A stretch of DNA of 64,000 nucleotides from Fidelibacterota bacterium (GTDB lineage: Bacteria > Fidelibacterota > Fidelibacteria > Fidelibacterales > DSDE01): contig JBJKQR010000001.1 of assembly GCA_046735395.1 (NCBI GenBank), positions 2,610 through 66,609 of the forward strand, given 5' to 3'. The first letter of the stretch is position 1; the number at the start of each line of letters is the position of its first letter. Shown here one piece after another: positions 6,201-52,489 of this stretch. The position numbers were made by a program, and so were the translations under genes. Under the pieces are notes generated by a model, which was given only the letters and a program-made list of their open reading frames with translations, was not told where the DNA came from and ran no database searches.

Positions 6201-6375
6201 TATCCTCGGGCAGAAGGTCATGTCATGGAAGCCCGGACGGCAGAATGCCGGGCAGTACACGTTTACCTGGGCCGGCGTCAATAGTGCGGGCCGACAGGTC
6301 TCCTCAGGAATCTATCTCTACGAAGTGAAGGGGGAGGGCTTTTCGGCCCGGAAGAAGATGCTGTATCTGAAATAG
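3280..6375 (+). CDS. Subtilisin-like serine protease (peptidase S8) with T9SS C-terminal sorting domain
   Basis: Catalytic motifs occur in D-H-S order: IGVVDGG, SHGTHVAGLAA, GNGTSMASP. There is an Asp/Gly-rich insert (DADGDGH...DDDGNGYIDD) and a signal peptide. The C-terminus is LEQNYPNPFNPVTHIAY...GIYLYEV...KKMLYLK. Confidence 0.9.
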   Translation: MMKERNMRGMTGKGEAARAFGVLLLTLLGFSYLSAQPARPDFDPDHIYVKVKDLSGLQSKGNSPVSAQDHISEIMNYQDIKMYRAFKIKDSNSKSAPANSLNRIYRVEIPLSISMDSLLQSLNREPDIEYAERIPLYYPAWVPNDSLYGYQDYLRQIGAEEAWDTYNYKERDSDVLIGVVDGGFYWHHPDLLDNVWNNLGEDADGDGHCIEIIDGVPVFDPGDVNGVDDDGNGYIDDFIGWDFVSEIEGQSGDNDPYEKRYLSHGTHVAGLAAARHNNGIGIASLSWNPKIILSAHGLPDGNVSVNPFAGIIYCAEQGADIINCSFGNHGFWSEADKEAIDYAISLGSLIIAAAGNYDEGDAFPFYPAAYPGVIAVASVDGQDRKTDYSNYGMYIDVCTPGGNHDPGILSLEPFTPTATFRGYEYGNGTSMASPITVSLAALIKAQNPDWIREQVGKQLLFSCDDISSFNPAYPGKLGMGRINAGKALSQQYTGNPEPLRLKVKHLIVPYRKVLTGPRPRPGRFSTTAPSDLVLNPGDTLDFGFSFRNFSHFSQDSGTQFVLSCDNPDITLLRNSVIDSIHVDSEQEIDSCFTIAVNKDAVDNSSLFHIEIIPGDKSLSVIQQMDCPFRISRLKFIHDENVFLTRCINTWDLGKSFYLSNFSGCDVVLQADVSETERPLFRIIAEKGGNSTWSFSNSYSSRPDDSTFQTVEFAIPPLNQTQHPILTFNAKWELGSSGDRVSGVNLNLDDGKGQYSILTPDSSVYNTENATAFNLFGRSDPVAAWTGSSDGWKHISMDLSGITTSDNAESGLQFQYAAAPDCPDSYFLIDNILVTDGPDTLFFNDAGPDMYLHVTGTNKLNATGTDLVAGGLDTEQLLSPGLSRLTIKSLVQYPAPAPGYYQGFINIRDTSGVLFSVVDWYLEVKDSLIITKLEPEPDLAQRFTLEQNYPNPFNPVTHIAYTLPRSSRVEVNIYNILGQKVMSWKPGRQNAGQYTFTWAGVNSAGRQVSSGIYLYEVKGEGFSARKKMLYLK

Positions 6376-6670: not shown

Positions 6671-7369
6671 ATGACAAAACGGGCATTAAAATACATACTG
6701 ATGATCATCATTGTGGGACTGCCTCTGACTGAATGCTCAACCGATAGTCCGGTGGATCCGGATGAGAAATTTGCGGTGGAAAGCATGTCTGATATCGACG
6801 GGAATGTTTACAGGACAGTCCGGATCGGCACACAACGGTGGATGGCGGAAAATCTGAGAGTGACGCATTACAGGGATGGAACAGCTATTCTGAAAGTGAC
6901 GGATAATCTGCAGTATGTAGGACTGACTTCAGGAATGTACAGATATTACAATAATGATTCCCTTATGGCCGAGCAAAGTGGAGCTCTGTATAACTGGGAC
7001 GCGGTAAACAGTTCTCATATCCTGGCACCGGAAGGCTGGCATGTCCCTACAGTTGAGGAATGGTACGAATTGACGGAATTTCTGGGCGGTTCAACCCGCG
7101 CAGGGACTAAACTGAAAAGCGGGACTGGCTGGGTAAAGAATGGAAACGGGACAGATGAGGTGGGATTTGACGGAATTCCGACGGGTCTCTGGTATCCTTA
7201 CAGTATATGTTCAGGCTTAGACAGCACTGCTTATTTCTGGACTTCATCGGAATATAATTCAACCCAAGCCTGGTCACGTGGATTATTGCACTATTACAGC
7301 GGCCTGACCCGGAATTATATGACAAAAATGCACGCACTTTCGGTTCGCTGTGTCCGGGATGAGAATTGA
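6671..7369 (+). CDS. FISUMP-domain lipoprotein (Fibrobacter succinogenes major paralogous domain family)
   Basis: Lipobox LPLTEC. The series GTQRWMAENLRVTHYRDG ... GALYNWDAV ... APEGWHVPTVEEWYEL ... FWTSSE ... LSVRCVRD follows the TIGR02145-type pattern as I recall it. Confidence 0.75.
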   Translation: MTKRALKYILMIIIVGLPLTECSTDSPVDPDEKFAVESMSDIDGNVYRTVRIGTQRWMAENLRVTHYRDGTAILKVTDNLQYVGLTSGMYRYYNNDSLMAEQSGALYNWDAVNSSHILAPEGWHVPTVEEWYELTEFLGGSTRAGTKLKSGTGWVKNGNGTDEVGFDGIPTGLWYPYSICSGLDSTAYFWTSSEYNSTQAWSRGLLHYYSGLTRNYMTKMHALSVRCVRDEN

Positions 7370-7646: not shown

Positions 7647-9956
7647 ATGCCGGCGATATACCACCAACTCCAGCACTATCTGGTTTATTTGTCCGCAGCC
7701 ATGGTGCTGGCCGTGTGCTGGCTGATTTACCGTTCCTACCAACGTCTGGATTACAATCGCATATCGCTCAGCCTCCGGGATATCCTGCCTCAGGCTCTGC
7801 TGGTTCTGCTTGCCTTCATCTCTCTGGAAATGAAATCCCTTCTCATCGATCCCCTTGCAGAACCCCGTTTTCCCTGGTTCATCCGTACCGTATTTGAATA
7901 CAGCATTTTTTTCCTGATCCCGGAAATACTTCTTCTGGCCGCTCTGGGCTATTCGCTCGCGCTCTGGAAGAAAATCCGGGACATTGACCGGAAACAGAAG
8001 GAATTTGAGGACAGGCCCAACCACCATTTCCCGGTTCAGCGGAAAACGCTGAAAGATCTGGAAGACCAGTTCCCCCGGCTCTACAATCTTATTCCGCAGC
8101 GTATGTATCTGAAGGATATGAAGGGTGTGTACCGCAGCGTGAACGCGGCGTTTGCGGCAAGTCTGAAAAAGACTCCCGAAGAAATCATTGGCAGGAATGA
8201 CCATGATTTGTTCGCTGACAGTCTGGCCCGGGCCACCTATATCGAAGATATGCTGGTTATCCGCAGGGTGGAGGACCTGAACGGTGTGGCCAGAGACGCG
8301 GCTGCGCCGAAGGGAATAAAATATACAAAAATGCCGGTCTATGATGACGACCACACGGTAAGCGGTGTGCTGGCCATTTTCTGGGACACCTGGGATCCGA
8401 AGGAAACGGAGAAGCAGCTCAGGGATTCACAGATCCGCTACAGTGCCCTCGCCGATTACACCTATGACTGGGAATACTGGCAGGACCAGAACGGACAGTA
8501 TCAGTATATTTCGCCGGCCTGTGAACGCATCAGCGGCTACAGTGCTGCCGAGCTCATGGAAAACCCCGAACTGATCTATGAAATGATTCTCCCGCGCTTC
8601 AGGGATAAGCTTCGGGAACACGCCCGCAATGTCAATTTTTCCCATCTTCCGGATGATACACACGAGGCTTTTGAATATCAGATACAATGCCGTGACGGGC
8701 AGCGGAAATGGCTGGATCACCGCTGTTCTCCCGTATTTTCAGACACGGGCGTCTTTCTGGGACGACGCGGTGTAAACCGGGATATCACCATCAAGCAGGC
8801 TGCCATCGATGAAATGAATAAACTCTCGGCGGCGGTGGAGCAGAGTCCGGTTTCGGTGGTGATTACCGATATTGAGGGAAATATCGAATATGTCAATCCC
8901 CGTTTCTGCCAGATTACCGGATATTCTGCGGAAGTGATCATCGGCCGGAATTCACGCATTCTGAACAGTGGATATCACAGTTCTGAATTTTACCGGGAAC
9001 TGTGGGCTACGATAAATAGCGGAAAAAACTGGACGGGCGAATTCCGGAACCGGAAAAAGAACGGAGACCTGTTCTGGGAGGATGCCAGTATCGGCCCCAT
9101 CATGAATAACGAGGGCGAGATCAGCCGCTTCGTGGCTCTGAAGATGGATATCACACGTCAGAAAACCCTTCTTGACAAGGAAAGCATGCTGCAGAACCAG
9201 CTGATACAGAATAACAAGCTGGCGTCACTCGGTGTGCTCTCGGCCGGGCTGGCCCACGAGATCAATAATCCCAATAATTATATCATGTACAATTCGGAGC
9301 TGGTCAAGTCCATGATCAACGAGTTTGTGGAAACGCGGAAAGACTGTCAGTTCCCCAAGCGTGACCTGGAGGTGATCAATACGCTGCTGAATGCCATCAG
9401 TGACGGTACGGCTCGAATCAACCGCATTATCGAAAGCCTGAAGAGTTTTTCGAGACAGGGCGAGACGGACGATCTGATGCTGGATATTGTGCAGGTCAAC
9501 CATCTGGTGGAAGTCGTGCTCACTATGATGAATTATCATATCAAGAAAATGACCGATAATTTCGAATTTGTAGCCGGGCCGGAGATTCCCACCGGCTACT
9601 GGGATGCGCAGAAGATCGAGCAGGTTCTGCTGAATCTCATTGAAAATGCGCTGGAAGCCCTGCCTGACCGGAAGAAGGCCATACAGGTCATTACCGATTA
9701 CCGCGCAGCGGATGAAACCGTATGCATCACCGTCCGGGATGAAGGCATCGGTATTCAGCCGGATATTATCCAGAATATTTTCGAACCCTTCTTCTCAACC
9801 CGGAAAAGCAGCGGCGGTACCGGCCTGGGGCTGTCCATATCCTATGCCATTATCCGTGAACATCAGGGGGATATCCTGGTTCACAGCGAGCCGGGCAAAG
9901 GGACGAAATTTGAAGTGCTTTTACCTCTGAATAAAGCGAAAGTCATAACACCATGA
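7647..9956 (+). CDS. Sensor histidine kinase (multi-TM N-terminus, PAS domains, HisKA/HATPase)
   Basis: Hydrophobic N-terminal helices and PAS-like blocks. H-box GLAHEINNPNNYI, N-box LLNLIENALEAL, G-boxes DEGIGI and GGTGLGLSI. The stop overlaps the next start (ATGA at 9953..9956). Confidence 0.9.
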   Translation: MPAIYHQLQHYLVYLSAAMVLAVCWLIYRSYQRLDYNRISLSLRDILPQALLVLLAFISLEMKSLLIDPLAEPRFPWFIRTVFEYSIFFLIPEILLLAALGYSLALWKKIRDIDRKQKEFEDRPNHHFPVQRKTLKDLEDQFPRLYNLIPQRMYLKDMKGVYRSVNAAFAASLKKTPEEIIGRNDHDLFADSLARATYIEDMLVIRRVEDLNGVARDAAAPKGIKYTKMPVYDDDHTVSGVLAIFWDTWDPKETEKQLRDSQIRYSALADYTYDWEYWQDQNGQYQYISPACERISGYSAAELMENPELIYEMILPRFRDKLREHARNVNFSHLPDDTHEAFEYQIQCRDGQRKWLDHRCSPVFSDTGVFLGRRGVNRDITIKQAAIDEMNKLSAAVEQSPVSVVITDIEGNIEYVNPRFCQITGYSAEVIIGRNSRILNSGYHSSEFYRELWATINSGKNWTGEFRNRKKNGDLFWEDASIGPIMNNEGEISRFVALKMDITRQKTLLDKESMLQNQLIQNNKLASLGVLSAGLAHEINNPNNYIMYNSELVKSMINEFVETRKDCQFPKRDLEVINTLLNAISDGTARINRIIESLKSFSRQGETDDLMLDIVQVNHLVEVVLTMMNYHIKKMTDNFEFVAGPEIPTGYWDAQKIEQVLLNLIENALEALPDRKKAIQVITDYRAADETVCITVRDEGIGIQPDIIQNIFEPFFSTRKSSGGTGLGLSISYAIIREHQGDILVHSEPGKGTKFEVLLPLNKAKVITP

Positions 9957-11365
9957 ACACATTGAAAGAAAATCTATCGCTGCTTTTAGCGGACGATGAG
10001 GAGAATTTTCTCTTTTCATTCAGGTTCAGCCTGGAAAAAGCCGGGTTTGAGACTATTCACACGGCTATGAACGAATCAGAAATATTTCACTGTCTGGAGC
10101 GCTATCCGGTGCATATTCTCTTTCTGGATCTGAATATGCCCGGACGGGACGGGCTGGATCTGCTTCCCATCATCCGTCAGAATTATCCGGATATTCAGAT
10201 TATCATCCTTACGGCGGTGGATAACACCGACACGGCTGTCCGCTGTATCAAGGAAGGTGCCTATGACTATATTGTCAAGCCCGTGAACCGGAACAGGCTT
10301 CTTCTCACGCTGGAAAAGGTGGTGGAACATCTGCAGATCAAACAGGATATGTCAAATCTTCAGGAAGCCTATTTCGCCGGTGAGCTGAAACGGGAGGAAT
10401 CCTTCGAGGAAATATTGACACGCTCCCCGAAAATGTACAGCATCTTCCGCTATGTGGAAGCCATCTGCCAGTCGCCCCAGCCTGTTCTCGTCACCGGAGA
10501 GACGGGCGTGGGCAAGGAACTGATGGCCAGGGCTATTTATAAGAGCGGCGCCCTCAATGGCCCCTTTGTCAGCGTGAATATTGCCGGGCTGGATGATACC
10601 ACCTTCAATGACAGCCTCTTCGGCCATCGGAAAGGGGCTTTCACCGGCGCGGACCGGGATCGGGAAGGATTGCTGAAAAAAGCGGAAAACGGCGCTGTCC
10701 TGCTGGATGAAATCGGTGAACTCAATGACAACAGCCAGATCAAGCTGCTCCGGCTGCTGAATGACGGCAGCTATTATCCGCTCGGATCCGACAAACTGGA
10801 ACACGCCAAAGTGCGTTTCATTCTGGCGACCAACCGGAATCTGGAGGAACTGGTGAAGAAGGGGAAATTCCGCAAGGATCTCTTTTACCGGCTCATTTCC
10901 CATCATATTCATATTCCGCCTCTGAGAGAGCGGAAGGAGGATATCGCTTATATTGTGCGCGAAGTCATGAAGGATGCCCAGAAAATTCTGCAGAAGACGG
11001 TGTATCTCACCGGCCAGGCAATGATTCAGTTCAGTTCCTACAATTATCCCGGTAATATCCGCGAGCTGAAGAATATTGTGTTTGACTGTATCGCCAATAC
11101 ACGGGACGGGGAAACCATCAATATCGAGTATCTGGAGACAAGGCTGGCCGGGACGCCCTTCTCAGAAACATCCAAACATCGCGGTGACCGGGATCTGACC
11201 GTGTCCTCCATGACGCTGGCGGACGCGGAACTGGCGCTCATTCGGACCGCGCTTTCCCGGGCCGGCGGAAATCAGAGCCGGGCTGCCGAGCAGCTGGGAA
11301 TTTCCCGCCAGGCCCTGAATAAAAAAATCAAGCGGCATCCGGAAATTCTGGAAGGGCTTTCATGA
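9953..11365 (+). CDS. Sigma-54-dependent response regulator (NtrC family)
   Basis: Receiver domain (LLADDE..., FLDLNMPGRDG). AAA+ activator core with Walker A GETGVGKE, a GAFTGA loop (KGAFTGADRD) and Walker B LLDEIGE. C-terminal Fis-type HTH (AAEQLGISRQALNKKIKR). Confidence 0.92.
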   Translation: MNTLKENLSLLLADDEENFLFSFRFSLEKAGFETIHTAMNESEIFHCLERYPVHILFLDLNMPGRDGLDLLPIIRQNYPDIQIIILTAVDNTDTAVRCIKEGAYDYIVKPVNRNRLLLTLEKVVEHLQIKQDMSNLQEAYFAGELKREESFEEILTRSPKMYSIFRYVEAICQSPQPVLVTGETGVGKELMARAIYKSGALNGPFVSVNIAGLDDTTFNDSLFGHRKGAFTGADRDREGLLKKAENGAVLLDEIGELNDNSQIKLLRLLNDGSYYPLGSDKLEHAKVRFILATNRNLEELVKKGKFRKDLFYRLISHHIHIPPLRERKEDIAYIVREVMKDAQKILQKTVYLTGQAMIQFSSYNYPGNIRELKNIVFDCIANTRDGETINIEYLETRLAGTPFSETSKHRGDRDLTVSSMTLADAELALIRTALSRAGGNQSRAAEQLGISRQALNKKIKRHPEILEGLS

Positions 11366-11554
11366 GATCGGATGCCGGGCACGCTTTGACGACCCCGACG
11401 GCGAAGCTCCGCGCACAGCGGATTTTTCTGTTTGATTGCTATGAAAGTGATTGTAATTTTGTCCGGAAATGATTCAGTAATGGTTTTTCCGTTTCGATGA
11501 GGGGAATTTATCCGGATATGAGATATTACTGTCAGAACCCGAAAACACCTCAGG

Positions 11555-12304
11555 ATGAGAATGAAAAAAATTGCAGTTTTCATGTTTATGACGGGATTGC
11601 TTTGTACAGCAACCGCCCAGAATATTACCTTTGAACCCGGCGCCGCGCAGGAGCTGACCCTGTCACAGGCCTTGGATACCACAGTCGTATTTCATGCCAC
11701 GGTGAAGAACACATCGAATCAGACCCTGAATATAAAGGGAATTCGCAGTGTTTGGGAAAAACCCCGCAGCTGGGTCACAAACATGTGTTTCGGACAATGT
11801 TATGCCGCAAGTGTGGATGAGACTGAACTGATCGAATTCTGGCCTGATGATGAGCTCGACTTCGAACTGGACGTGGAACTGTCCTCTCAGGAGACGGGAC
11901 GCGCCCGGGTGGATATTGCCATGCTGTCATCGCTGGGAGATTCCCTGGTTCTGAGCTTTTCCCTGTCCGCGGGATCCAGCTCCATAAATATGAATTCCGG
12001 GGTTCCGAAAAGCTGCCGTCTCAAGGGGAATTATCCCAATCCCTTCAATCCTCAGACAGACATCGTATTTACTGTTGACCGTCCGGCTGAAATCTGTCTG
12101 AAAATCTATTCCATTGACGGAAAGCTGCTGAATGAACTGTTCCGTCCGGAAGTCATGATGCCCGGCGAATATCACATGATGTGGAACGGACGGGATGGGA
12201 AGGGATCACCGGCTCCGTCCGGAACCTATATTTACAGGCTGGTATCCACTGACCGCGAAGAGAACCTGTCGTCTGAAACCCGTAAAATGATTTTGCTCAA
12301 ATGA
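11555..12304 (+). CDS. Secreted hypothetical protein with T9SS C-terminal sorting domain
   Basis: Signal peptide MKKIAVFMFMTGLLCTATAQ and an internal CFGQC cysteine pair. C-terminus NYPNPFNPQTDIVF...GTYIYRLV...TRKMILLK. The stop overlaps the next start (ATGA at 12301..12304). Confidence 0.8.
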   Translation: MRMKKIAVFMFMTGLLCTATAQNITFEPGAAQELTLSQALDTTVVFHATVKNTSNQTLNIKGIRSVWEKPRSWVTNMCFGQCYAASVDETELIEFWPDDELDFELDVELSSQETGRARVDIAMLSSLGDSLVLSFSLSAGSSSINMNSGVPKSCRLKGNYPNPFNPQTDIVFTVDRPAEICLKIYSIDGKLLNELFRPEVMMPGEYHMMWNGRDGKGSPAPSGTYIYRLVSTDREENLSSETRKMILLK

Positions 12305-13536
12305 GACCGGGATCTGCTTATTTCATAACTCGGGTGCTGCTTCTCATATCCGTTCTGTTGATCTTATTTTCATGTACGACTCAGGATGGCATCACCGTAT
12401 CGACCGGTGACCGGGGCAGCCTGTATGTTTCGGCAGGCACAGGCGCTGAAGAGTGCAGGATATATATTAATAATCTGTCCACGGACTATTTCGCTCCCAC
12501 GACCGTTGAACTTTATCCCGGCCTCTACACGATCAAGGTGCGGCAGGCGGGCTTTGTATCAACTCCTGATTCGGTCAATATCAGTATCGAAGAAAAACAA
12601 CTGTCTGAAATTCATTTCGATTTGACGGCCGTTTCCTCCGGGAATCTTTCTGTAACGACCCGAAACGGCGCTGTTTCGCTGCGCCTGGATGGCCTGCTCA
12701 TGCCTGATGGGCAGCGTGACTTTCCCGGACTTGCCCGGGGACATCATATTCTCATCAGTCGTAAAGCCGGTTATTATTCCGCCATCGATACGGTTCTCGT
12801 TGAAGCGAATAAAACCACCGCTCTGTCAGTGGATCTGACCCGGAAAAGCCAGGTCTTTCTGCTGGAACATTTCTCAAATGTGAGCTGTACGCCCTGCGCG
12901 GAAATGGATGCTGTTCTCGAAGAATTTCTGGCTGCCCATGACAGCGTTGAGATCGTCCCTCTGGCATGGCATACGAATTTTCCTTCCGAATCCGATCCCA
13001 TGTATCTCAGCGCTATCGATGCCTGCAGCGGCCGCACGGAGTATTATGGCGTGGACGCAACGCCCGCTTTCTTCATGAATGGCAGCGAAGTGACCGCCTA
13101 CACCAGCCGGTCACTGACCCGTGCCCTCGACAGTTATATCTCCGTTAACCAACCCGATTCCAGTTTCGAATTGCTGACTATTACGCTGAATCCTTTCCCG
13201 GATATATCAGGGCGAATTACGCTCCGCAGCCGGGAAAATATCGGCGCCGGCCTGATCCTCAGGCTGGCTGTCACCGAAACGGAGATTGCCTATGATACAC
13301 CTCCCGGCACAAATGGTCAGACCCACTTCAGTCACGTTGTCCGGGATCTGCAGGAATTCGATGAAAACGGAACATTGCAGATGGGTGCCGGTGAGGAAAA
13401 GTCCTGGCCCTTCAGTTTCGAATATCGCAACGAGTGGGAGGGGCGTCTGCAGCTGATCGCCTTTGTTCAGGATGAGTCTGACAGAAGCGTAAAAATCTGC
13501 GCTGTGTCCGAAGCGATAATTATGACGGGAGAATAG
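12301..13536 (+). CDS. Lipoprotein with PEGA-like repeats and a thioredoxin-fold CxxC domain (Omp28-related type)
   Basis: Lipobox LILFSC. Two PEGA-like beta-sandwich repeats (..CRIYINN..YTIKVRQAGF.. and ..HHILISRKAGY..). The C-terminal half starts VFLLEHFSNVSCTPCAEMD and shares W..DP.Y...C..R..YYGV.A.P with the ORF at 15474. Confidence 0.7.
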   Translation: MRPGSAYFITRVLLLISVLLILFSCTTQDGITVSTGDRGSLYVSAGTGAEECRIYINNLSTDYFAPTTVELYPGLYTIKVRQAGFVSTPDSVNISIEEKQLSEIHFDLTAVSSGNLSVTTRNGAVSLRLDGLLMPDGQRDFPGLARGHHILISRKAGYYSAIDTVLVEANKTTALSVDLTRKSQVFLLEHFSNVSCTPCAEMDAVLEEFLAAHDSVEIVPLAWHTNFPSESDPMYLSAIDACSGRTEYYGVDATPAFFMNGSEVTAYTSRSLTRALDSYISVNQPDSSFELLTITLNPFPDISGRITLRSRENIGAGLILRLAVTETEIAYDTPPGTNGQTHFSHVVRDLQEFDENGTLQMGAGEEKSWPFSFEYRNEWEGRLQLIAFVQDESDRSVKICAVSEAIIMTGE

Positions 13537-13538
13537 GA

Positions 13539-14048
13539 ATGCGATACGTACTTCTTGTGTTGCTGAGCGCCCTTGTGCTGTCTGCAGGCGACGGGTCTGC
13601 GAGAAAAGCCGCTGATTTCAGCCTGAAGAATATGAATAACAGGACCGAACGGCTCAGCGAGGCCGTCGCTGAACAGCCGCTTACGCTGGTAAATTTCTGG
13701 GCTACCTGGTGTGTGCCCTGTGCGGCAGAGATGAAGGAATTCAATACACTCTACCAGACGTACCATGAGAAGGGGCTCCGGATAATCTCCGTTTCCGTGG
13801 ATGACCCGAAAACCGCCGGACGGGTCCGGTCCTGGGCCCACTCACATAAGGTGCAGCATGATGTCTGGATGGATACGAATAACGATGTGATGAGACGCTA
13901 CAGTATCAATGCGCTTCCCTTCACAATGATCATTGACAGGGATATGAACATTATTTACGAGCATAATGGCTACCGCAAGGGGGACATGCAGTTTGTTGAG
14001 GAGGAAATCCGTCAGCAGCTGGGGTTAATTGAGAAAGGCGGAGAATGA
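13539..14048 (+). CDS. TlpA/ResA-family periplasmic thiol:disulfide oxidoreductase
   Basis: Signal peptide and the redoxin active site NFWATWCVPCAAEMKEF. It starts 2 nt after the previous stop, and its own stop overlaps the next start (ATGA at 14045..14048). Confidence 0.88.
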   Translation: MRYVLLVLLSALVLSAGDGSARKAADFSLKNMNNRTERLSEAVAEQPLTLVNFWATWCVPCAAEMKEFNTLYQTYHEKGLRIISVSVDDPKTAGRVRSWAHSHKVQHDVWMDTNNDVMRRYSINALPFTMIIDRDMNIIYEHNGYRKGDMQFVEEEIRQQLGLIEKGGE

Positions 14049-15445
14049 AGTTTCTGAAAGGTCTGCTGCTCTGGGCCTGCAGTCTGTCTGCCCTTGCCGC
14101 AGGGTCACCCGGCATTCAGCCTGATCTTTCTGTATATGGTGTTTATTCCAATGACAGACAGGGCGGGGACAGCTATTTCGAGAACTGGACCCGGCTGGAT
14201 CTGAGCCACGAACGAGTCCGGGCCGGTCTGCAGTTTGAGGCTCATACGCCGCCGCTTCCCTATTCACAGGATACGAGCGGCATGGGGCTGTATCAGCGCT
14301 ATATCCGCTACGGCGGCGAAAGGTTTCAGCTTACCCTCGGTAATTTTTACAGCATGCTGGGCATGGGGCTGGTCTTTCGAAGTTTCGAAAACCGTTCCAT
14401 TCGCTGGGATACCAATGTGGACGGTTTTCTGGCTAGTACTCAGACCGGAATACTGGAAACAAAGGTGTTCGCAGGAAAACCCCGGGACCGGAGCGGTGTC
14501 AGGCTTGATCCCCTGGCCGGCGTGGAAGCGGATCTGTCGCCTATGACTGCGCTTCGTCTGGGAACAACCTGGCTGGGCAGCTCTGACGAAGAGAACAAGC
14601 TGCTGCAGCGTGCATCTTTCCTGACAAGCTACAGCGGTTTTCTCGGCAGCCTCTATGGAGAATTTGCCTTTCGGGATGACGGACGCGGACACTGGAATGA
14701 CGGGCATGCCTTTTATTCGGCAGCCGACTTCTTCATATCATCGCTGTCATTCCGGCTTGAGATCAAGGATTATGATCATTTTCACCTGGCCGGCAACAGC
14801 CTCTACGATTACAATAATCCACCTACGGTCGTGAGAGAACATCTTTTCAGTCTGCTGAACCGTCATCAGCTTGTTATTAATGCGGATGATGAGACCGGGT
14901 TTCTCCTGGAATCGGTTATTCCCGTGTCCGATCTCATTCTTCTGACTCTGAATACAAACCGCAGCCGGAATTCTGCCGGAGATCTGCTCTATACTGAGAA
15001 TTACGCCCAGATGGATGTTTCCTTCCCATCCGACATATCACTGACAGCGGCCGGCGGGCTGGAGGGTGATCGGGAAGCGACCTATCTGAATGCCGTCTTC
15101 AGCGCTTCGGCAGCTGTCGATGAACGCCGTGCAGTGAAATTTCTCTATGAACACCAGCATGTGGCTATCCGGCTCACCGATCGGCAGTTTTACAGCCAGA
15201 TTCTGCATCTGGAATTTTCCCAGGCTCCGCTCTACACTGTTTCAATACTGGCTGAGCGCAGTACGGACCAATATTCTGAGCGGAGTATCTGGCTCGGTGT
15301 GGAGGGAGATATGAATTTTGCCGATGGCTATGATCTGTCCGTCTTTGCCGGAAACCGCCGGGAAGGAAAGGTCTGCGCCGGTGGTGTCTGTGTTTACAAA
15401 CCTGAATTTCAGGGCATTGAACTCATTTTTCAGATAAGATTGTAA
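14045..15445 (+). CDS. Predicted outer-membrane beta-barrel protein (possibly DUF6029 family)
   Basis: Signal peptide (LLLWACSLSALAAG). The 466-aa protein has no TM helices and shows alternating aromatic/polar strand-like patterns. The C-terminus is KVCAGGVCVYKPEFQGIELIFQIRL. The family name is recollection only. Confidence 0.6.
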   Translation: MKFLKGLLLWACSLSALAAGSPGIQPDLSVYGVYSNDRQGGDSYFENWTRLDLSHERVRAGLQFEAHTPPLPYSQDTSGMGLYQRYIRYGGERFQLTLGNFYSMLGMGLVFRSFENRSIRWDTNVDGFLASTQTGILETKVFAGKPRDRSGVRLDPLAGVEADLSPMTALRLGTTWLGSSDEENKLLQRASFLTSYSGFLGSLYGEFAFRDDGRGHWNDGHAFYSAADFFISSLSFRLEIKDYDHFHLAGNSLYDYNNPPTVVREHLFSLLNRHQLVINADDETGFLLESVIPVSDLILLTLNTNRSRNSAGDLLYTENYAQMDVSFPSDISLTAAGGLEGDREATYLNAVFSASAAVDERRAVKFLYEHQHVAIRLTDRQFYSQILHLEFSQAPLYTVSILAERSTDQYSERSIWLGVEGDMNFADGYDLSVFAGNRREGKVCAGGVCVYKPEFQGIELIFQIRL

Positions 15446-15473
15446 TAGTGCAAACATAACGCAGGAGGGATTT

Positions 15474-17408
15474 ATGAAGAAAATTCTGTATTTGGTTCAA
15501 TTTGGTTTGCTGGCAACTCTGCTTATTGCCGGAAATCCCTGCATGCCGGGGGGCATTCCCGGATTTGAAACCGTAAGTTCGGCAGATACTATGACCTATC
15601 TGCTGAATGAAGATTTTGACGCAGCCGGACAGGCCGGGACACTTCCCGAAGGCTGGAGCTTTTCAAACACCAACAGCGCCTTCGTGGATCATATCTGGAG
15701 TGTATCTTATATCGAATCAGAAGGAAACGGGTATGTTTCCTACTATCCGTACTGGAATAATGCCTGGCAGAGCGGCAGCGACATAGGCCGTCTGATTACA
15801 CCGTACATGGACCTTAGCGACGTGAATTACGCCGTTTTTTCCTATGACCAGCATCTGTATTACAACAGCGGCTTCGGCGTGAATTCGGGGCTCGAGTACC
15901 GTCTGCCCGGAGGCAACTGGACCGTTGCATTCAAAAAGAGTCTCAAGGAAACGAAGAATACACAGACCGTCGTGATTCCCGACGCCTGTCTCGGTCAGGA
16001 TTCTGTGCAGTTTGCATTGTTTTTTGATGGAAATGTCTCAGAAATTACCTGGTGGCGACTGGATAATGTTCAGATGTACAAACCACCGGTGACCGGACTT
16101 CAGGTTGTCAGCAACACTATGAATTTTACCATGCCGAAGGACAGCAGCTGTGTACCCCAGGCCCGGATCTACGCAACCGGGTCCGGAAATGCGGATTTTA
16201 AGATGTACTGTGATGCCTATCATAATGAAGATCAGATTTATGAGGACTCGGTGCTGATAGATATCATCAGCTATAAAGCATATAAATTAGTGAATTTCAA
16301 ACCCTTTACGGCGCCCGGTGACAATGAGGCCTATCGCTTCGTATTTACCAGTGAATACACGCGGGCAGCGGGATATGAGGATGCAGACGCCGACAGCTCC
16401 GTAGGCTGGATAGATTCGAATTGCTCACCCCGGGCAGCTGTGGTCTGGGAGGAATTCACCAATACAGGCTGCGGGCCCTGTGCTGCTGCGAATCCCGGAC
16501 TGAAAACCGCTTTCAAGGCGCTCGGTACGGCCAAGGTCCTGCCCATTTTTGTGCATGTGTACTGGCCAGCCGGTAATGATCCCTTTTATGTTCCGAATTC
16601 TGCCCAGTGCAATACACGCATCAACTATTACGGTGTGAATGCCGTTCCTCATGCAGTGGCCGATGGTACGGTACACCCGTCCCTGTCCTCCCCGGAGAGA
16701 AATGCCACGAATGCTGTCAATGCCAATCTGGAAATCGGTGTTCCTGTGCTGATGAGCGCAGATGCCAGCCTGACAGGCAGTGGCTTCAGCGCGACGGTGA
16801 CCTTTGAAACTCCCGGTGAATTCCGCGGACCGGTGGATCTGAAGCTGCATACGGCGGTCATCGAAAACGGCGTGAAATATAATGCACCCAATGGCGAGGA
16901 CTGGTTCGACTGGGCGCTGAGAAAATATTATCCTGATGCGGACGGGGCATCTGTCTCGCTCACCCACGGTGAAACCCAGACCGTCACTGTCTCCGGTGAC
17001 TTCGATGCCTCCTGGAATTCGGATAATCTGGGCGTGATCATCTATCTGCAGAATGATCTGGATAAGAGCATCCTGCAGGCCACATACTTTGGTGCCGTGG
17101 AAGTGGTCAGCGTGGAAAATATGACGGCCTCCCGCTTTAATCTGGAACAGAATTATCCCAATCCCTTCAATCCCAGCACGCGTATCAGCTATGATATCGC
17201 CGATGAGGGCAGGGTTACCCTGTCGGTTTTTAACTGTCTGGGACAGAAAGTTGCCGTGCTGCAGAATGCTGCTCAGACTGCCGGGCATTACGATATTCTC
17301 TGGAAGGGAGAGGACGGAAACGGCCGCCTGCTGCCATCGGGAGTCTATTACTACCGGCTCGAAAGCGGTAAACAGTCTCTGACCCGGAAGATGCTCTTTC
17401 TGAAATAA
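15474..17408 (+). CDS. T9SS cargo protein: choice-of-anchor-J-like N-terminal module, thioredoxin-fold CxxC domain, C-terminal sorting domain
   Basis: Signal peptide. LNEDFD..LPEGWSF module near the N-terminus, central VVWEEFTNTGCGPCAAANP, and C-terminus LEQNYPNPFNPSTRISY...GVYYYRL...TRKMLFLK. Confidence 0.8.
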   Translation: MKKILYLVQFGLLATLLIAGNPCMPGGIPGFETVSSADTMTYLLNEDFDAAGQAGTLPEGWSFSNTNSAFVDHIWSVSYIESEGNGYVSYYPYWNNAWQSGSDIGRLITPYMDLSDVNYAVFSYDQHLYYNSGFGVNSGLEYRLPGGNWTVAFKKSLKETKNTQTVVIPDACLGQDSVQFALFFDGNVSEITWWRLDNVQMYKPPVTGLQVVSNTMNFTMPKDSSCVPQARIYATGSGNADFKMYCDAYHNEDQIYEDSVLIDIISYKAYKLVNFKPFTAPGDNEAYRFVFTSEYTRAAGYEDADADSSVGWIDSNCSPRAAVVWEEFTNTGCGPCAAANPGLKTAFKALGTAKVLPIFVHVYWPAGNDPFYVPNSAQCNTRINYYGVNAVPHAVADGTVHPSLSSPERNATNAVNANLEIGVPVLMSADASLTGSGFSATVTFETPGEFRGPVDLKLHTAVIENGVKYNAPNGEDWFDWALRKYYPDADGASVSLTHGETQTVTVSGDFDASWNSDNLGVIIYLQNDLDKSILQATYFGAVEVVSVENMTASRFNLEQNYPNPFNPSTRISYDIADEGRVTLSVFNCLGQKVAVLQNAAQTAGHYDILWKGEDGNGRLLPSGVYYYRLESGKQSLTRKMLFLK

Positions 17409-17545: not shown

Positions 17546-18151
17546 GTGGAAATGATGAACTGGTTTATCGAACATACGGGGATAGCCGGGCTTATGACTG
17601 TCCTGCTGATGTGGCTGGATTGGATCCTGACCTTGGCGCAGGAAAAAGAGAGAAAAATCCATTATCAAGAGCATTATCGCAGCTATCCGGTCAATACGAT
17701 TGAAGGAAATCACATTGTCCGACAAGATGTTGAAAAACTCCGGCTTCTGAACCCCAGGCATATCCTGATTTCGATTGCTGTGGGGCTCTTTGTCTGGATC
17801 TTTCTGCAGAAAATTCCTCCGGACGCGGCGTTAGTGTTCACCGGTTACCTCTGGGGACTGTTTCTCATCGTCAATACTCAGCATCTGAGTAATCTGACCG
17901 GGTATCGTTTCAGCCGGAAGGGACTTCATGGAAAGATATGGATGCATCAGCGGACGGGATACCTGGTTCAGTCTGGCCGATATTTTGCGACCTTCATCTT
18001 TTTATTCCTATTGTCCCTGCTGATAGAAAACCTGTTTTTATGGGGCGTCACGCTGGCCGCCCTGGTCTCATCACTGCGGATGTTCATCTGGATCCGGAAA
18101 GTTCCCCGGATAGCTGAGGGTGATCCGCCTCCCGAAAATCAGAGTGGCTGA
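17546..18151 (+). CDS. Hypothetical integral membrane protein
   Basis: The 201-aa ORF has four to five hydrophobic helices. I recognise no motif. Confidence 0.55.
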   Translation: MEMMNWFIEHTGIAGLMTVLLMWLDWILTLAQEKERKIHYQEHYRSYPVNTIEGNHIVRQDVEKLRLLNPRHILISIAVGLFVWIFLQKIPPDAALVFTGYLWGLFLIVNTQHLSNLTGYRFSRKGLHGKIWMHQRTGYLVQSGRYFATFIFLFLLSLLIENLFLWGVTLAALVSSLRMFIWIRKVPRIAEGDPPPENQSG

Positions 18152-18195: not shown

Positions 18196-19149
18196 ATGAA
18201 AAAGCTACGAATCCTCCTTTTTCTGTTTTGCATCCATTCATCTTTATTCGGACAGAGCCTGGCACAGGTTATTCCTGCCTTTGACCTGTCCTCCTCGTTT
18301 TCCAGCATCCGGGATTTCAGCCTGGCCTCATCGTGTCATGAAGCGTACATCACAGTTCAGAGCCCGCTGGGTGAACTATCTGTTCTGGTCCGTCTGCGAA
18401 AGGAGGGCGGCACCTGGCAACCTGCCGGTATTCTGCCTTTTTCCGGCCGCTATCATGATCTGGAGCCCTTCCTGTCGCCGGACAATCTGAAACTCTATTT
18501 TGCATCCGACCGGCCCAAACCCGATTCCACCCAACACTCCGCCGATTACGATATCTGGGTGGTTGAACGGGATAATCCGGATGCGGAGTGGGGTGAACCC
18601 AGAAATCCGGGCGCTCCGCTCAATTCGGAGTATAATGAATTTTATCCATCCGTCTCCCGGCAGCACAACATTTATTTCACGTCAGATCGACCCTCGTCAA
18701 AAGGGAAAGACGATATCTTCTGCAGCCTTCTGACAGAACAGGGCTATGCGGAACCGTATTCTCTGAGTGAATCTGTCAATACGGAAGGATATGAATTCAA
18801 TGCCTTTGTAGCCGGGGATGAATCATTTCTTATCTTCAGCGGTTATAAGCGGCCAGACGGCCTGGGCAGCGGAGATCTGTACATCAGCATACGGGATGAA
18901 AATAAAAAGTGGAGGTCCGCGAAGAACCTGGGCACAGACATTAATTCAGAATCTATGGATTATTGTCCCTTTGTTGACGTCCGCAACGGGGTTTTATATT
19001 TTACCAGCAAGAGAAATATCTACCAGGACGTGAACAATTTTCAATCCATTGATGACCTGGTCCGGGAACTTCATAAAAACGGCAACAGTATTTCGACAAT
19101 ATATAAGATACCCTTCGAACTGAAACACGTCAATGAAAAGGAAAACTGA
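18196..19149 (+). CDS. Periplasmic PD40/TolB-like beta-propeller repeat protein
   Basis: Signal peptide and repeated PD40-type signatures: LEPFLSPDNLKLYFASDRP, FYPSVSRQHNIYFTSDRP, FNAFVAGDESFLIFSGYKR, YCPFVDVRNGVLYFTSKRN. Confidence 0.75.
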   Translation: MKKLRILLFLFCIHSSLFGQSLAQVIPAFDLSSSFSSIRDFSLASSCHEAYITVQSPLGELSVLVRLRKEGGTWQPAGILPFSGRYHDLEPFLSPDNLKLYFASDRPKPDSTQHSADYDIWVVERDNPDAEWGEPRNPGAPLNSEYNEFYPSVSRQHNIYFTSDRPSSKGKDDIFCSLLTEQGYAEPYSLSESVNTEGYEFNAFVAGDESFLIFSGYKRPDGLGSGDLYISIRDENKKWRSAKNLGTDINSESMDYCPFVDVRNGVLYFTSKRNIYQDVNNFQSIDDLVRELHKNGNSISTIYKIPFELKHVNEKEN

Positions 19150-20349: not shown

Positions 20350-20675
20350 AATATCTGAAACATGTTTATCTGCTATTATTTATTCTCGGCAGCGTGGTAC
20401 CGACCTGGTATTTTGTCCGCTTCCTGCAGGAAGGCAGCCTGGCCCCGGGTGCCTTTATCCAGGGTGTATTCGGGACGAATCCGGCGGCGAATTTCGGATC
20501 GCAGGTTCTGATCAGCGTGGCCGTATTCTGGGTGTTCATGTTCGCCGAATCCCGCGGAACCCATCTCCGCAGAAATATCCTTCTGATGATTCTGACCTTC
20601 GCGGTGGGCCTGAGTTCGTCCCTGCCCCTCTATTTGTACCTGAGGGAAAGAAAAAGTGGAAATCATCATGAATAG
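20346..20675 (+). CDS. Small three-TM membrane protein (DUF2834-like)
   Basis: The 109-aa ORF has three hydrophobic helices. Its start overlaps the previous stop (ATGA at 20346..20349). The family name is tentative. Confidence 0.55.
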   Translation: MKYLKHVYLLLFILGSVVPTWYFVRFLQEGSLAPGAFIQGVFGTNPAANFGSQVLISVAVFWVFMFAESRGTHLRRNILLMILTFAVGLSSSLPLYLYLRERKSGNHHE

Positions 20676-21114
20676 TAAAAATTCTGAGAATTCAGGCGGA
20701 GACGGCGCTGCAAGTGTCTTTGCCCGGACCTATTTTCACGGAAGCAAGGCGGATCTGAAGATGGGGGATTTCATTGAAACCGGGATTGAATCCAATTACG
20801 GTGCCCGGAAAAAAGCGAAATATATCTATCTGACCGGCACGCTGGATGCGGCAATCTGGGGTGCAGAACTGGCGCTGGGCAGCGGTCGGGAACGAATTTA
20901 CTTAGTTGAGCCCACAGGACCCGTAGAGGATGATCCGGACCTGACGGATAAAAAATTCCCGGGAAATCCCACCTTATCCTACCGTTCCGAACATCCATTC
21001 AGGGTTGTGGGTGAAGTCTGCCTCTGGACAGGACATTCGGCGGAGCAGATCCGGGCCATGAAGGAGGGAGCAGGAAAACTCATTGAACAGGGCGCAGCAG
21101 CAATTGGAGACTGA
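20656..21114 (+). CDS. arr: NAD(+)--rifampin ADP-ribosyltransferase (Arr) homologue
   Basis: YFHGSKADLKMGD, IYL, AIWGAELA, IYLVEPTGPVEDDPDLTDKKFPGNPTLSYRS and FRVVG are collinear with Arr-2/Arr-ms as I remember them (YHGTKANLAIGD ... IYIVEPTGPFEDDPNLTNKRFPGNPTQSYRT ... LRIVG). The size (about 150 aa) also fits. An alternative start lies at 20668. Confidence 0.85.
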   Translation: MEIIMNSKNSENSGGDGAASVFARTYFHGSKADLKMGDFIETGIESNYGARKKAKYIYLTGTLDAAIWGAELALGSGRERIYLVEPTGPVEDDPDLTDKKFPGNPTLSYRSEHPFRVVGEVCLWTGHSAEQIRAMKEGAGKLIEQGAAAIGD

Positions 21115-22122: not shown

Positions 22123-25100
22123 ATGTTTAAAAAAAGTATTTGTCTGCTGATAAGTATTGTGCCGTTTTGTTTCAGCCAATTTCCGATGAGTTTCACTGAA
22201 ATTACAAAAAACGCTGAATTCGGATCCGCACATGCTGTTGCCCTTGATAATGCCGGGAATGTATATCTGGCGAATAATACCGGAGGATTATGGGTTTTTG
22301 GTTATGATGGGACATCCTTCACCGATATTGCCCATATCAACGATGGGGAGAACGCGTCCGCAGTCACGGTCCGGAATGACGGGTATATTTTTCTGGCGAA
22401 TGGAAATGATGGCCTGCGGGTCTATTCCCTGAATGCCAACACATTGAACCATGAAGGGCACTGGAATGAATATATAAACGGCGGAGGAAGTGCGGACGTC
22501 GCCGTATCTCCGGATGGAACGGTGTTTCTCGCGAATGCCATGGACGGATTGCGGGCATTTACCTGGGATGGAAGCACCTTAACGAATACGGCACATATTC
22601 ATGAAGGAGACTGGTTTGGATCCGCAAACGCCCTGGTAGTCGCCTCGGACTCACTCATTTTACTGTCTAATGATCAGGATGGTATCCGCGCCTATCATTA
22701 CGATGGGGCTGCATTCACAGCCCTTGCCGGGGCAAATGTCATTGGTGCGGCATACGGCATTGCCATGTGGCCGGACAGTACCGTATTCGCTGCGACTCTG
22801 GATAATGGCATTCAGGTATTTAATTTTACCGGTAGTGCATTCGAACCCCTGGCATCCTTTACTGATTTTGGTTATAGTGCCGATATTGCTTTCGGAGGGG
22901 ACAGCACCGTATTTAAGGCCGGAAGCGGGTGGGGACTGCATGCCTATATCTTCAGCAAATCGAAGCGGACATTCACAAAAACCGCTGAAATCGATGACGG
23001 CGGGTCTGCCGTCGGTGTTACCGTTGGGGCAGACGGCACCGTTTTTTTGGCAAACGACCGCGATGGCCTGAGAGCCTATTCCTTCGATGGATCTTCCTTC
23101 AGCAGCAAGGGACAAGTGAATCATGGCGGTCTGGCAATGGATGCGGCGGTTTCAGCTCAGGGATTGGTCTGCCTGGCTAATGGAGGGGACGGACTGCGTA
23201 TTTATTCATTTGACGGAACAGCACTGGAAAATATCGGGCACCGAAATGATGTAGATTATGGGAACGGCGCGGAAAGTGTGGCCCAGGGACCGGATGGTAC
23301 TATTTATGTAGCCATGGGAAGTGATCCCATGCGTTCCTATAGTTTTGACGGCAGCACTGTTATACAGACTGCGCAGGCAATGTTTTCCATTAACAGCAAA
23401 AAAATGGTCGTGGATTCAAAGGGTACGATCTTTTCGGTTCAGTCCGGATTGTATGCATATGTGAAGGAGGGGAGTGATATACAGGAGAAAGGTTTTATCG
23501 CGGATGGTAACGGTTCTGCCCAATATGTGGAACTGTATCAGGACTCTGTGATTCTGATGGCGAATGGTTCAGACGGATTGAGGGCCTATACCTTTAACGG
23601 TACTGATTTTATTGAGGCCGGACATATTAATGACGGAGGTTCGGCTGTCGGTATTGCAGTTGATACCAGCGGAACCATTTTTCTGGCAAATGATTCCGAC
23701 GGGCTGAGAGCTTATCGTTATGACGGCTCGTCCTTTACAAATATTGCCCATGTTCAGGAGGAATTCGGACAGACTTACAGTGTGGTCATTGACAGTATCG
23801 GGCACGTCTACACCGCGAATCTGAACGACGGGTTCCGGGCCTACACATTCAATGGTACGTCCTTTACGAATATCGGTTATAAAAAAGTGGGCAATACGGG
23901 AAAATTGGCCATCGGGCCGGATCGGACTCTCTATAATTTTAATTATGAGTACGGCCTGACCCTGTATGCCCTGTCAGAGAGCGCAGCACCCGTCATAGAA
24001 CAAATCCCGGATACCAGCTTTTATGAAGATTCGAGCCTGGTTATAAATCTTTCGGCCACGGATCCCGACAGTTATGACTTGTATTTCTCCGCCCATAGCG
24101 ACACGTCTGCTGTCATGGCTGATATTCAGGATGGCCCTGCTTTATTGCTGCATTTCCCGAATAGTAACTGGGTGGGGGATGCAAATATTACCGTCACCGT
24201 CAGTGACGGGCTCTATTCGGACAGCACAACCTTCAGGGTGACCGTCATTCCCGTGAACGACCCGATAAAGTTTAAATATTTACCCACTTATGTAGTCCGG
24301 GAAGACAGTATTATCACTGTGGCGCTTCATGTGGATGATGTGGATCAGCAGGAAAATCTGGTGTTTACAGCAACATCGGACACGTCTGCGGTTCAGCTGG
24401 AGCTGCGGGACAGCCTGCTGACGATTATTCCCGACTCCAACTGGGTCGGCTGGTGTACCATTACCGCGACCGTAACGGATGGAGTATATTCCGATACCGC
24501 CCAGTTTCAGATCGGATATCAGGATGTCAATGACCCGCCGGGACGCTTTTCATTACTGTCGCCGGAGGATAACTGCTTCTGGACCGACAGCAGCATCATC
24601 GTATTCACCTGGGAAAGGCCGGTAGACGCTGACAATTCATATATTCAATTCAAATTAAAATACGTCTATGATGACGTTATCCGTACTTTTTATCTAATGG
24701 ATACTTTTTACATCTATGATATCGGTTGGGGTCAATTACCGGTTAATAAGGATATTCACTGGGAAGTCTGGGCCTATGATTGGACTGATTCAACCCGGTG
24801 CAGTGACGGATTCCGAACTTTTTCGATCTCTCCCAACCTTTTATCCATCAATGAAAACGCCATTCCGGAATCATACTGTTTAAATCAGAATTATCCCAAC
24901 CCCTTCAATCCCGTGACCACCATTCAGTTCGGCCTTCCGGAGCAGTCCGATGTTATACTGAGGATCTATGATATCACCGGCCGGCAGGTGAAAACCTGGA
25001 CAGTGACTCAAATGAAGGCAGGGTATCATGAATTACTCTGGAACGGGACGAATGATTTCAACCAGAAAGTCTCCACCGGCATTTACATTTACCGCATGCA

Positions 25101-38732: not shown

Positions 38733-38795
38733 ACCATTCTGGAAACATCCCGGGATGGCTATTGGCATGCCGATCTGGAAGGCCGCTTTCTGAAT

Positions 38796-51783: not shown

Positions 51784-51886
51784 ACAGAGTTACTCCTTGT
51801 CTTTTTATGAGGATAGGTTTTTGCTTAGCATAAATCAGTCGTGATGGGAAATGACAGCCTTTTCAATAATTGGAAATAAGGATGAT

Positions 51887-52438: not shown

Positions 52439-52489
52439 GGATTTGCCTTCTTCCCAGATTTACCTATTCTGTTTAGACTTAATATTTAT

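Follow-up and report, generated by a model that had tools for sequence, protein, structure and literature searches.

A conserved four-gene module of cysteine-pair proteins and a predicted outer-membrane barrel: a candidate thiol-disulfide pathway of the bacterial envelope

What does a secreted thioredoxin-like protein have to do with an outer-membrane beta-barrel and with cysteine-pair proteins, some of them apparently bound for the cell surface? The question is raised by five genes, g1 to g5, at positions 11555-17408 of a 64,000-nucleotide (nt) stretch of DNA from a Fidelibacterota bacterium (contig JBJKQR010000001.1), which as a whole is called the window here. An earlier inspection made without database searches (the sequence-only reading) had proposed a thiol-disulfide relay reaching the outer membrane or surface. 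Four of the genes belong to one module, as its conservation, fusions, invariant cysteines or selenocysteine (Sec), folds and an orthologous neighbourhood in Porphyromonas gingivalis attest. The module, which we take as an envelope thiol-disulfide pathway, probably conveys either thiol-disulfide chemistry or PorA itself across the outer membrane, and there is a real chance that it is a new kind of outer-membrane function. The five genes and their parts are:

11555-12304, +: g1, 249 aa, PorA-like type IX secretion system (T9SS) cargo; signal peptide, Ig-like N-domain of about 130 aa, C78/C82 (nt 11786-11800), type A C-terminal sorting domain (CTD) at about 160-249
12301-13536, +: g2, 411 aa, lipoprotein (Cys25); two PEGA-like beta domains (39-177), C196-T-P-C199 (nt 12886-12897), Omp28-type beta-sandwich (289-402)
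13539-14048, +: g3, 169 aa, secreted TlpA/ResA-type redoxin; W-C58-V-P-C61 (nt 13710-13721)
14045-15445, +: g4, 466 aa, DUF6029 predicted outer-membrane barrel of about 24 strands; conserved long loop at about 255-285 (nt 14807-14899), last strand preceded by a C444-AGGV-C449 hairpin (nt 15374-15391)
15474-17408, +: g5, 644 aa, accessory T9SS cargo; N-terminal domain at about 30-315 with no family assigned, Omp28-like thioredoxin-fold domain and sandwich (321-537), type A sorting domain (561-640)
16470-16481, +: C333-G-P-C336 of g5

Conservation, fusions and cysteine pairs

The tight packing first read from the letters holds, with ATGA overlaps joining g1 to g2 and g3 to g4 and gaps of 2 nt between g2 and g3 and 28 nt between g4 and g5. 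The arrangement is not due to chance, since it turns up again in 68 loci that belong to many phyla. These DUF6029 loci come from a profile scan with one genome per species, and their neighbours were identified by searching six-frame open reading frames (ORFs) with the window proteins and domain profiles. Relatives of g4 occur in Calditrichia, KSB1 and Marinimicrobia, and the labels of the loci include Calditrichota, KSB1, Neomarinimicrobiota, Zixibacteria, Ignavibacteria, Fibrobacteres, Gemmatimonadota, Krumholzibacteria and metagenome-assembled genomes (MAGs) of Bacteroidota. The four-gene core g1-g4 is found in the 68 loci, from at least eight lineages of the Fibrobacteres-Chlorobi-Bacteroidetes (FCB) group, and the locus closest to the window is in a Neomarinimicrobiota MAG (L029 in our numbering; g4 56% identical). 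In 56 loci the gene directly upstream of the barrel gene is of TlpA type, and in 8 the two are joined into one, making 64 of 68 loci with enough upstream sequence. Where at least 4 kb upstream is available, an Omp28-like domain is present in 45 of 49 loci and a PorA-like domain likewise in 45 of 49. Proteins like g5, with an Omp28-like and a sorting domain, accompany the barrel gene in only about a third of the loci and vary in position and strand, so the conserved unit is g1-g4 and g5 is an accessory paralogue. The five-gene order supposed at first is thus kept in relatives for g1-g4 and not for g5. Clustering of all neighbouring ORFs of the 68 loci disclosed no other widely conserved partner, and only housekeeping methyltransferases recur (9 loci).

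Natural fusions bring the components closer still. A single protein combines redoxin and barrel in Fibrobacteraceae and Krumholzibacteria (Redoxin 24-148, DUF6029 from 188), and a database search with one fusion protein gave TlpA::DUF6029 fusions of at least 600 aa in 103 of 120 clusters among the matches listed. Each of the 103 carries CxPC close to its N-terminal end and C.GG.C close to its C-terminal end. The second fusion, in Fibrobacteres and Krumholzibacteria, has a PorA-like domain behind an Omp28-like one and a T9SS sorting domain at the end, and in the fusion lineages the four components amount to two polypeptides. The fusions are strong evidence for TlpA acting at the barrel and for the Omp28-type domain acting together with the PorA-like domain.

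The cysteine pairs of all the components are invariant. The g1-type pair (C78/C82, the CFGQC motif of residues 78-82) is present in 20/20 sequences, with a spacing of x3 to x8 and usually followed by Y/F-P-P; across 24 PorA-like domains N28, R40, P46, W49, C54 and C58 do not vary. The CxxC of g2 (C196/C199) is kept in 36/36 sequences and its lipobox Cys in 34/37, the CxxC of g3 (C58/C61) in 56/56, and that of the Omp28-type domain in 47/47 where the region is present. The pairs named in the sequence-only reading all hold, and it missed a further one in the barrel itself, C444-x4-C449 of g4, which is invariant in all full-length sequences. An exhaustive search yielded 776 DUF6029 representatives (E up to 1e-3) among 1.84 billion proteins, and 118 of the 118 full-length representatives have C-x4-C within their last 60 residues. 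In many lineages the PorA-like hairpin is C-x-G-G-x-C, identical to that of the barrel. The active sites of TlpA (CVPC), g2 (CTPC) and g5 (CGPC) are all of the CxPC form, whose dipeptides are of the reductase-like kind.

Further evidence on the Omp28-type CxxC comes from 14 Omp28-like paralogues that appeared to have lost their N-termini. All 14 have an in-frame stop codon exactly at the first Cys of the motif, every one of these stops is TGA, and the signal peptide lies further upstream (examples are EEHTSTT-U-SFC and EYFTNTS-U-GGC). The sites, in paralogues next to DUF6029 genes, are L016:3814, L019:3788, L035:9854 and 11864, L042:3469, L051:2151 and 3231, L052:2117, L054:1115, 2202 and 3291, L059:3223, L060:9611 and L068:3504. 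The NCBIfam 'Omp28-related selenoprotein' model fits these paralogues. In a test for a selenocysteine insertion sequence, the 60 nt that follow each TGA in the 14 paralogues did not have a significantly low folding energy; small hairpins begin about 11-17 nt 3' of the TGA. The TGA-bearing paralogues are likely to be UxxC selenoproteins. Sec would stand in for the first Cys, and since it occurs almost exclusively where redox catalysis takes place, the Omp28-type domain very probably has a working redox centre in its CxxC.

Some variants of these components can be set down beside them. The PorA-like Cys-hairpin domain occurs in 2-3 tandem copies per protein at L036:5915-7354, L034:5835-7229, L037:6229-7344, L045:1-1149 and L060:5723-7237, which are loci labelled Calditrichota, KSB1 and Fibrobacteraceae. 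A small UxxC Omp28-like protein of Zixibacteria (L051:2220-2981) has a C-terminal dockerin type I domain, which suggests attachment to a cohesin-bearing surface scaffold. Upstream of the module at L067:518-1402 and in six other Ignavibacteria/Zixibacteria loci is a gene for a membrane polyferredoxin-like protein with two Fer4_5 domains (NapH/MauN-like), and this neighbour recurs in lineages in which the g2 slot is PEGA plus TlpA-like rather than PEGA plus Omp28-like.

Predicted folds and the Porphyromonas gingivalis neighbourhood

The labels of g2, g3, g4 and g5 (PEGA/Omp28, TlpA/ResA, DUF6029, and Omp28 with a sorting domain) are borne out by hidden Markov model (HMM) scans. For g4 the match to DUF6029 (PF19494) is 3e-35 (122.3 bits, cut-off 27), and for g5 those to Omp28 (a family also listed as NF033782) and Por_Secre_tail (TIGR04183/PF18962) are 51.6 bits (cut-off 34.9) and 36.9 (cut-off 23). 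The N-terminus of g5 is a plain signal peptide, with the T9SS sorting domain elsewhere, so it is no lipoprotein. The lipobox of g2 is LFSC, its PEGA score is 25.9 bits (cut-off 20.8), and around CTPC (196-199) there are weak matches to Omp28, DUF1223 and Thioredoxin_4, the Pfam Omp28 (PF11551) score being 15.1, below the cut-off of 34.9. For g3, with its WCVPC active site, AhpC-TSA (5e-24, 84.9 bits) and Redoxin (69.7 bits) are both above cut-off, but the more specific models are not reached (ResA subfamily 6e-27, 94.6 bits against 170; TlpA 47 against 230; DsbE 49.6 against 123), and it is best described, from these profiles, as a member of the broad TlpA/ResA-type family and not as a named equivalog. 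The Omp28-related selenoprotein model (NF045500) gives 38 for g2 and 27 for g5 against a cut-off of 200, both having Cys and not Sec. Across 216 aa g2 and g5 are 25% identical (E 3e-19); within the longer pattern that they had been said to share, the CxPC part stands and the third Cys (C242 of g2) does not, being Asn in 27/37 orthologues. The Omp28, DUF6029 and TlpA families that had been proposed for searching were thus all detected, while the scans found no 'choice-of-anchor J' in the N-terminal domain of g5 at E up to 0.1. The CFGQC motif claimed for g1 is there; its sorting domain scores between weak and borderline (TIGR04183 21.4 bits, cut-off 23), backed by matches to FlgD_ig (1e-5) and to the PorU C-terminal region (1e-10).

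An AlphaFold2 (AF2) model of g2, from a 15-sequence alignment and with a mean confidence (pLDDT) of 83, has two beta domains, then thioredoxin topology and then a beta-sandwich. The thioredoxin part begins with a strand and with CxxC at the N-terminus of a helix; then come another strand, helices, Pro255, two strands and a last helix. When a profile of 51 Omp28-type domains was compared with the PDB, it matched the DUF1223 protein 2AXO (6e-6), thioredoxin 1FO5 (1.6e-5, with CxxC and cis-Pro aligned), P. gingivalis Omp28 2R2C (3.7e-4, in the sandwich part) and, weakly, HBP35 (5Y1A, 4e-3); with g3/TlpA the hhalign probability is 88%. The CxxC domains accordingly show the thioredoxin fold presumed for them, in the topology of the g2 model as in the similarity to thioredoxin profiles.

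For the barrel, a natural TlpA::DUF6029 fusion (P0025, a homologue of 30% identity) was modelled by AF2 from 93 sequences with pLDDT 92.3 and a predicted template-modelling score (pTM) of 0.91. The TlpA domain (24-162) and a linker are followed by 24 DSSP strands, whose connections average about 3 residues on the side of the termini (the TlpA, periplasmic side) and about 12 on the other. On the long-loop side, between the two final membrane strands, is the Cys hairpin, made of strands 610-614 and 617-621 about a GG turn. Highly conserved, and modelled with confidence as lacking regular structure, is a 39-residue loop (401-441), which may line or plug the lumen. The best barrel matches by Foldseek are the 24-strand ushers FimD and PapC, with template-modelling (TM) scores up to 0.55; AlgE is also among the structural matches (TM 0.32). 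The TlpA domain superposes on TlpA itself (1JFU) and on 4TXO (root-mean-square deviation 2.3-2.4, with 2.3 for 1JFU), Etrx1/2 and StoA, and 4TXV also matches. As modelled, the outer-membrane beta-barrel of DUF6029 has about 24 strands, and its C-terminal C-x4-C hairpin is on the side of the long loops, the extracellular one.

The best PDB match of a g1 N-domain profile is the N-domain of P. gingivalis PorA (6KJK, E 0.0065), whose 'ALCFGQ-CMLPNV' aligns on the Cys motif of the family. PorA (PGN_0123/PG2172) is a 246-aa protein with a signal peptide, an Ig-like, FimH-lectin-like domain and a sorting domain (PMC7712824), and Omp28 is PG2173 (PMC9722745). A contig with a 100% match to a PorA fragment, L069, came from a metagenome scan, and it has four consecutive genes with unrelated genes on both flanks:

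L069 6691-7173: TlpA-like redoxin, CKPC
L069 7229-8974: DUF6029 protein (2e-161, 538.7 bits, full length), with C-terminal NCSGGVCRVVPETQG
L069 8994-9869: Omp28, EEFTGQKCLYCP aligned on the CxxC of the family
L069 9869-10609: PorA

The same set of four is present on four further Porphyromonas-like contigs. omp28 and porA overlap in L069 just as g1 and g2 do in the window. A joint profile of the g2/g5-type domain scores 46.9 bits against full-length P. gingivalis Omp28 (positions 3-222), and the profile score between g1 and PorA is marginal, 17-20 bits. Single-sequence phmmer searches of g1 and g2 against P. gingivalis proteins gave no match, the link being by profiles and synteny only. Score, motif, architecture, size and neighbours taken together make g1 PorA-like, and on this footing the module is the counterpart of the P. 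gingivalis tlpA-DUF6029-omp28-porA neighbourhood. Four protein types are adjacent, as in g1-g4; PorA and g1 are alike in length (246 and 249 aa), in having a signal peptide, an Ig-like domain and a type A CTD, and in the aligned C-F-G-Q-C; and Omp28 has the aligned CxxC. The gene order differs, being tlpA, barrel, omp28, porA in P. gingivalis as against porA-like, omp28-like, tlpA, barrel in the window, where g2 has two extra PEGA-like domains and there is the extra paralogue g5.

One member of the module, PorA, is therefore already partly characterised, as a regulator and cargo of the T9SS. The active signalling form of PorA is reported to be periplasmic and to contain the CTD, which leaves the N-domain with no known function (PMC12152298). 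Neither of the two PorA papers mentions an operon or Omp28, and no paper joining TlpA, DUF6029, Omp28 and PorA was found in the literature searched. No PglZ-type PorX was found in the 64-kb window, where the adjacent regulator is NtrC-type, and PorXY partners were not found near the module.

Rival readings

How might these pieces work together? The reading we favour, tentatively and at close to an even chance, is an outer-membrane-spanning thiol-disulfide module that would lead from TlpA via the barrel to the Omp28-type domain and then to the PorA-like hairpin or other surface substrates. Inner-membrane CcdA or DsbD, encoded elsewhere, would keep TlpA reduced. TlpA would dock at the periplasmic mouth of the barrel, to which it is covalently fused in some lineages, and thiol-disulfide exchange through the wide barrel, direct or via the barrel hairpin, would pass to CxPC/UxxC Omp28-type domains on the outer face. 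These in turn would act on the Cys hairpin of the PorA-like protein and possibly on other surface substrates. Thioredoxin-fold and non-thioredoxin partners would so alternate along the chain, as in the DsbD cascade. A bolder form of this reading, possible and on the unlikely side, makes DUF6029 the first outer-membrane thiol-disulfide conduit, a functional beta-barrel analogue of DsbD that would bring reducing power of the periplasm from TlpA, docked or fused, to Cys/Sec thioredoxin-fold proteins at the surface; in Porphyromonas it would also be a Sov-independent route or partner for PorA, coupling T9SS regulation to the redox state of the envelope.

The design of the relay proposed by the sequence-only reading is well supported by conservation, the fusions, the invariant cysteines and the UxxC proteins, whereas we only infer that electrons flow across the membrane, and likewise in which direction, on which side Omp28 and g2 lie, what the barrel hairpin does and what the final substrate is. 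Several points weigh against the relay. We know of no thiol relay through a beta-barrel. Among the scanned ORFs of the 64-kb window there is no CcdA or DsbD, and none is conserved beside the module in the 68 loci. A purely structural role of the barrel hairpin is conceivable, and the surface exposure of Omp28 and g2 is presumed. In P. gingivalis, mutation of PorA Cys92/96/137/181 left PorXY activation unaffected (PMC12152298), so the Cys pair of PorA is not needed for its one known function.

The same components can be read as a secretion device. In this main rival, which we think unlikely, the DUF6029 barrel would be given over to PorA-like and/or Omp28-type proteins, as their own translocon or surface-exposure device, and would be the Sov-independent route of PorA; TlpA at the periplasmic mouth would keep cargo Cys pairs reduced and translocation-competent, and disulfide formation or exchange outside would trap the cargo, in the manner of a Mia40-like ratchet. 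A barrel of about 24 strands, best matched by ushers that pass folded Ig-like subunits, would suit such a role, as would the Ig-like N-domain of PorA with its resemblance to the FimH lectin domain (PMC7712824), the location of P. gingivalis porA two genes from the barrel gene in the same four-gene cluster, and the TlpA::barrel fusion, which fits a receptor at the pore mouth. The surface exposure of PorA in sov and porV mutants (PMC7712824; PMC8754138) would also be explained. But PorA is abundant in Sov-PorV complexes (PMC8754138), and g1, g5 and the Omp28::PorA-like fusions of Fibrobacteres have T9SS sorting domains and hence an export route already. Moreover, the likeness to ushers is one of barrel size only, as the plug and the N- and C-terminal usher domains are missing and no chaperone gene is seen, and a translocon gives no reason for the invariant Cys hairpin of the barrel or for Sec in Omp28-type domains. 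Weaker than the translocon, and improbable in our estimate, is a module whose redox chemistry is all periplasmic: before Omp28-type and PorA-like proteins are exported by the T9SS or sorted as lipoproteins, TlpA would reduce or proof-read their Cys/Sec pairs, and the barrel would be no more than an anchor, or else a porin for some unrelated solute. In the periplasm, proteins of the TlpA type reduce the Cys pairs of specific clients, as with ScoI and CoxB (4TXO and 4TXV are among the structural matches), and the active signalling PorA was reported as periplasmic (PMC12152298). What that leaves unexplained is the tie of TlpA to the barrel in 64/68 loci, with fusion in more than 100 clusters, and the extracellular side on which the most conserved elements of the barrel, the Cys hairpin and the long loop, are placed. 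Weaker still, and very improbable, is a polysaccharide-export porin with the redoxins as bystanders: DUF6029 similarity was noted among barrels syntenic with outer-membrane polysaccharide export (OPX) genes, with HHpred likeness to Wzi-like barrels (PMC9603273), and AlgE is a structural match, but its TM score of 0.32 compares with up to 0.55 for ushers and the conserved partners are all Cys-pair proteins. A role in polysaccharide export was rejected, as the 68 loci share no conserved family of OPX, polysaccharide copolymerase (PCP) or glycosyltransferase proteins.

If the favoured thiol-disulfide reading is right, the module touches a real gap. We know of no pathway that delivers reducing equivalents beyond the diderm periplasm, yet thioredoxin-fold proteins exist at the surface (HBP35, Omp28-type proteins, the selenoprotein paralogues). 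With a reductase that is fused to a barrel bearing an invariant Cys hairpin, the module is a concrete candidate whose design can be tested. It would give genomic context to PorA, an essential and poorly understood component of the T9SS, and a first functional hypothesis for DUF6029, Omp28 and the 'Omp28-related selenoprotein' family, and the genetic tractability of P. gingivalis makes these ideas directly testable. The component families are known; as far as the literature searched shows, the module as a unit, the barrel Cys hairpin, both fusions and the selenoprotein paralogues are undescribed.

The surrounding genes and known systems

Upstream of g1 the features are:

7647-9956, +: PAS histidine kinase (HMM scans)
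9953-11365, +: NtrC-type sigma-54 activator (HMM scans)
11408-11429, +: terminator-like hairpin and T-run 3' of the NtrC-type gene, 5-bp stem with 4 GC pairs, TTTTTCTGTT tail
11431-11461, +: candidate Bacteroidetes-type promoter TTTG-N19-TAATTTTG, 94 nt 5' of the g1 start codon

The kinase and activator genes are directly upstream as first described, with a gap of 189 nt before g1. This gap has no site matching TGGCAC-N5-TTGCW with up to 3 mismatches, which agrees with the earlier failure to find a convincing -24/-12 promoter. The hairpin at 11408-11429 is a weak consensus match only and suggests that the two-component genes are a separate transcription unit. TTTG-N19-TAATTTTG, whose consensus we take to be that of Bacteroidetes-type promoters, is suggestive only: the window has 2 matches to TTTG-N19-TAnnTTTG where 0.48 are expected, and 2 was reached by 11 of 100 shuffles. 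Only about 4 of the 68 loci (L004, L020, L029 and L039) have homologues of the kinase or regulator close to the module, and the P. gingivalis locus has none. Given this rarity, the missing sigma-54 site and the hairpin and promoter-like site in between, the two-component system, whose adjacency in the window is not a conserved link, is probably a neighbour and not part of the module. Control by the adjacent sigma-54 regulator was rejected on the same grounds.

Elsewhere in the window are:

3280-6375, 6671-7369 and 22123-25170: T9SS cargo genes (S8 subtilase; cadherin-like, about 1000 aa) and a Fibrobacter-type FISUMP-domain lipoprotein gene
17546-18151: 201-aa multi-pass membrane protein with no family match
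18196-19149: PD40 beta-propeller with partial similarity to PorE of the T9SS
20656-21114: Arr-type rifampin ADP-ribosyltransferase gene (Pfam Arr-ms, 2e-46)
37581-38732: dCache+HAMP protein
38796-40262: PAS-HisKA-HATPase-receiver protein, 63 nt on
48703-51783, -: 1026-aa T9SS cargo
51887-52438, -: TlpA/AhpC-type redoxin
52490-53968, -: pyridine nucleotide-disulfide oxidoreductase

The genes at 17546-18151 and 18196-19149 lie directly 3' of g5, and because no clear terminator was seen after g5 they may be co-transcribed with it. The last three genes form a second redox cluster (48703-53968), which might be an electron supply or another thiol system. The cargo and FISUMP-domain lipoprotein genes fit an organism of the FCB group. 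The pair at 37581-40262, just after a low-GC stretch (36-38 kb, GC 0.39), resembles a hybrid sensor kinase that has been split or frameshifted.

Among known systems, the FimD and PapC ushers share with DUF6029 the barrel of about 24 strands, but the sequences are unrelated (8-9% identity). The DsbD and CcdA-TlpA pathways share a cascade of Cys pairs in which thioredoxin-fold and non-thioredoxin carriers alternate. DsbD has a thioredoxin-like domain fused to a membrane domain with its own Cys pair, as in TlpA::DUF6029, and an Ig-like carrier in which a hairpin Cys pair is followed by Y-P-P, as in the g1 family; the active site of TlpA itself, WCVPC, is identical to that of g3. The membrane part differs, being an outer-membrane beta-barrel here and alpha-helical in DsbD-beta/CcdA, and for the outer membrane we know of no source of energy or electrons. 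Homology of g1 to DsbD-alpha was considered and rejected (hhalign probability 4.6%, with only a 17-column C..G.CYPP motif aligned, and DsbD absent from the PDB profile matches). HBP35 of P. gingivalis, a T9SS cargo with reported thioredoxin activity, and pneumococcal Etrx1/2 are, like the Omp28-type proteins as read here, thioredoxin-fold CxxC proteins of the cell surface. The Omp28-type proteins differ in being a distinct, DUF1223-like thioredoxin subfamily with a C-terminal sandwich, and in their genetic tie to a barrel and to TlpA of the periplasm.

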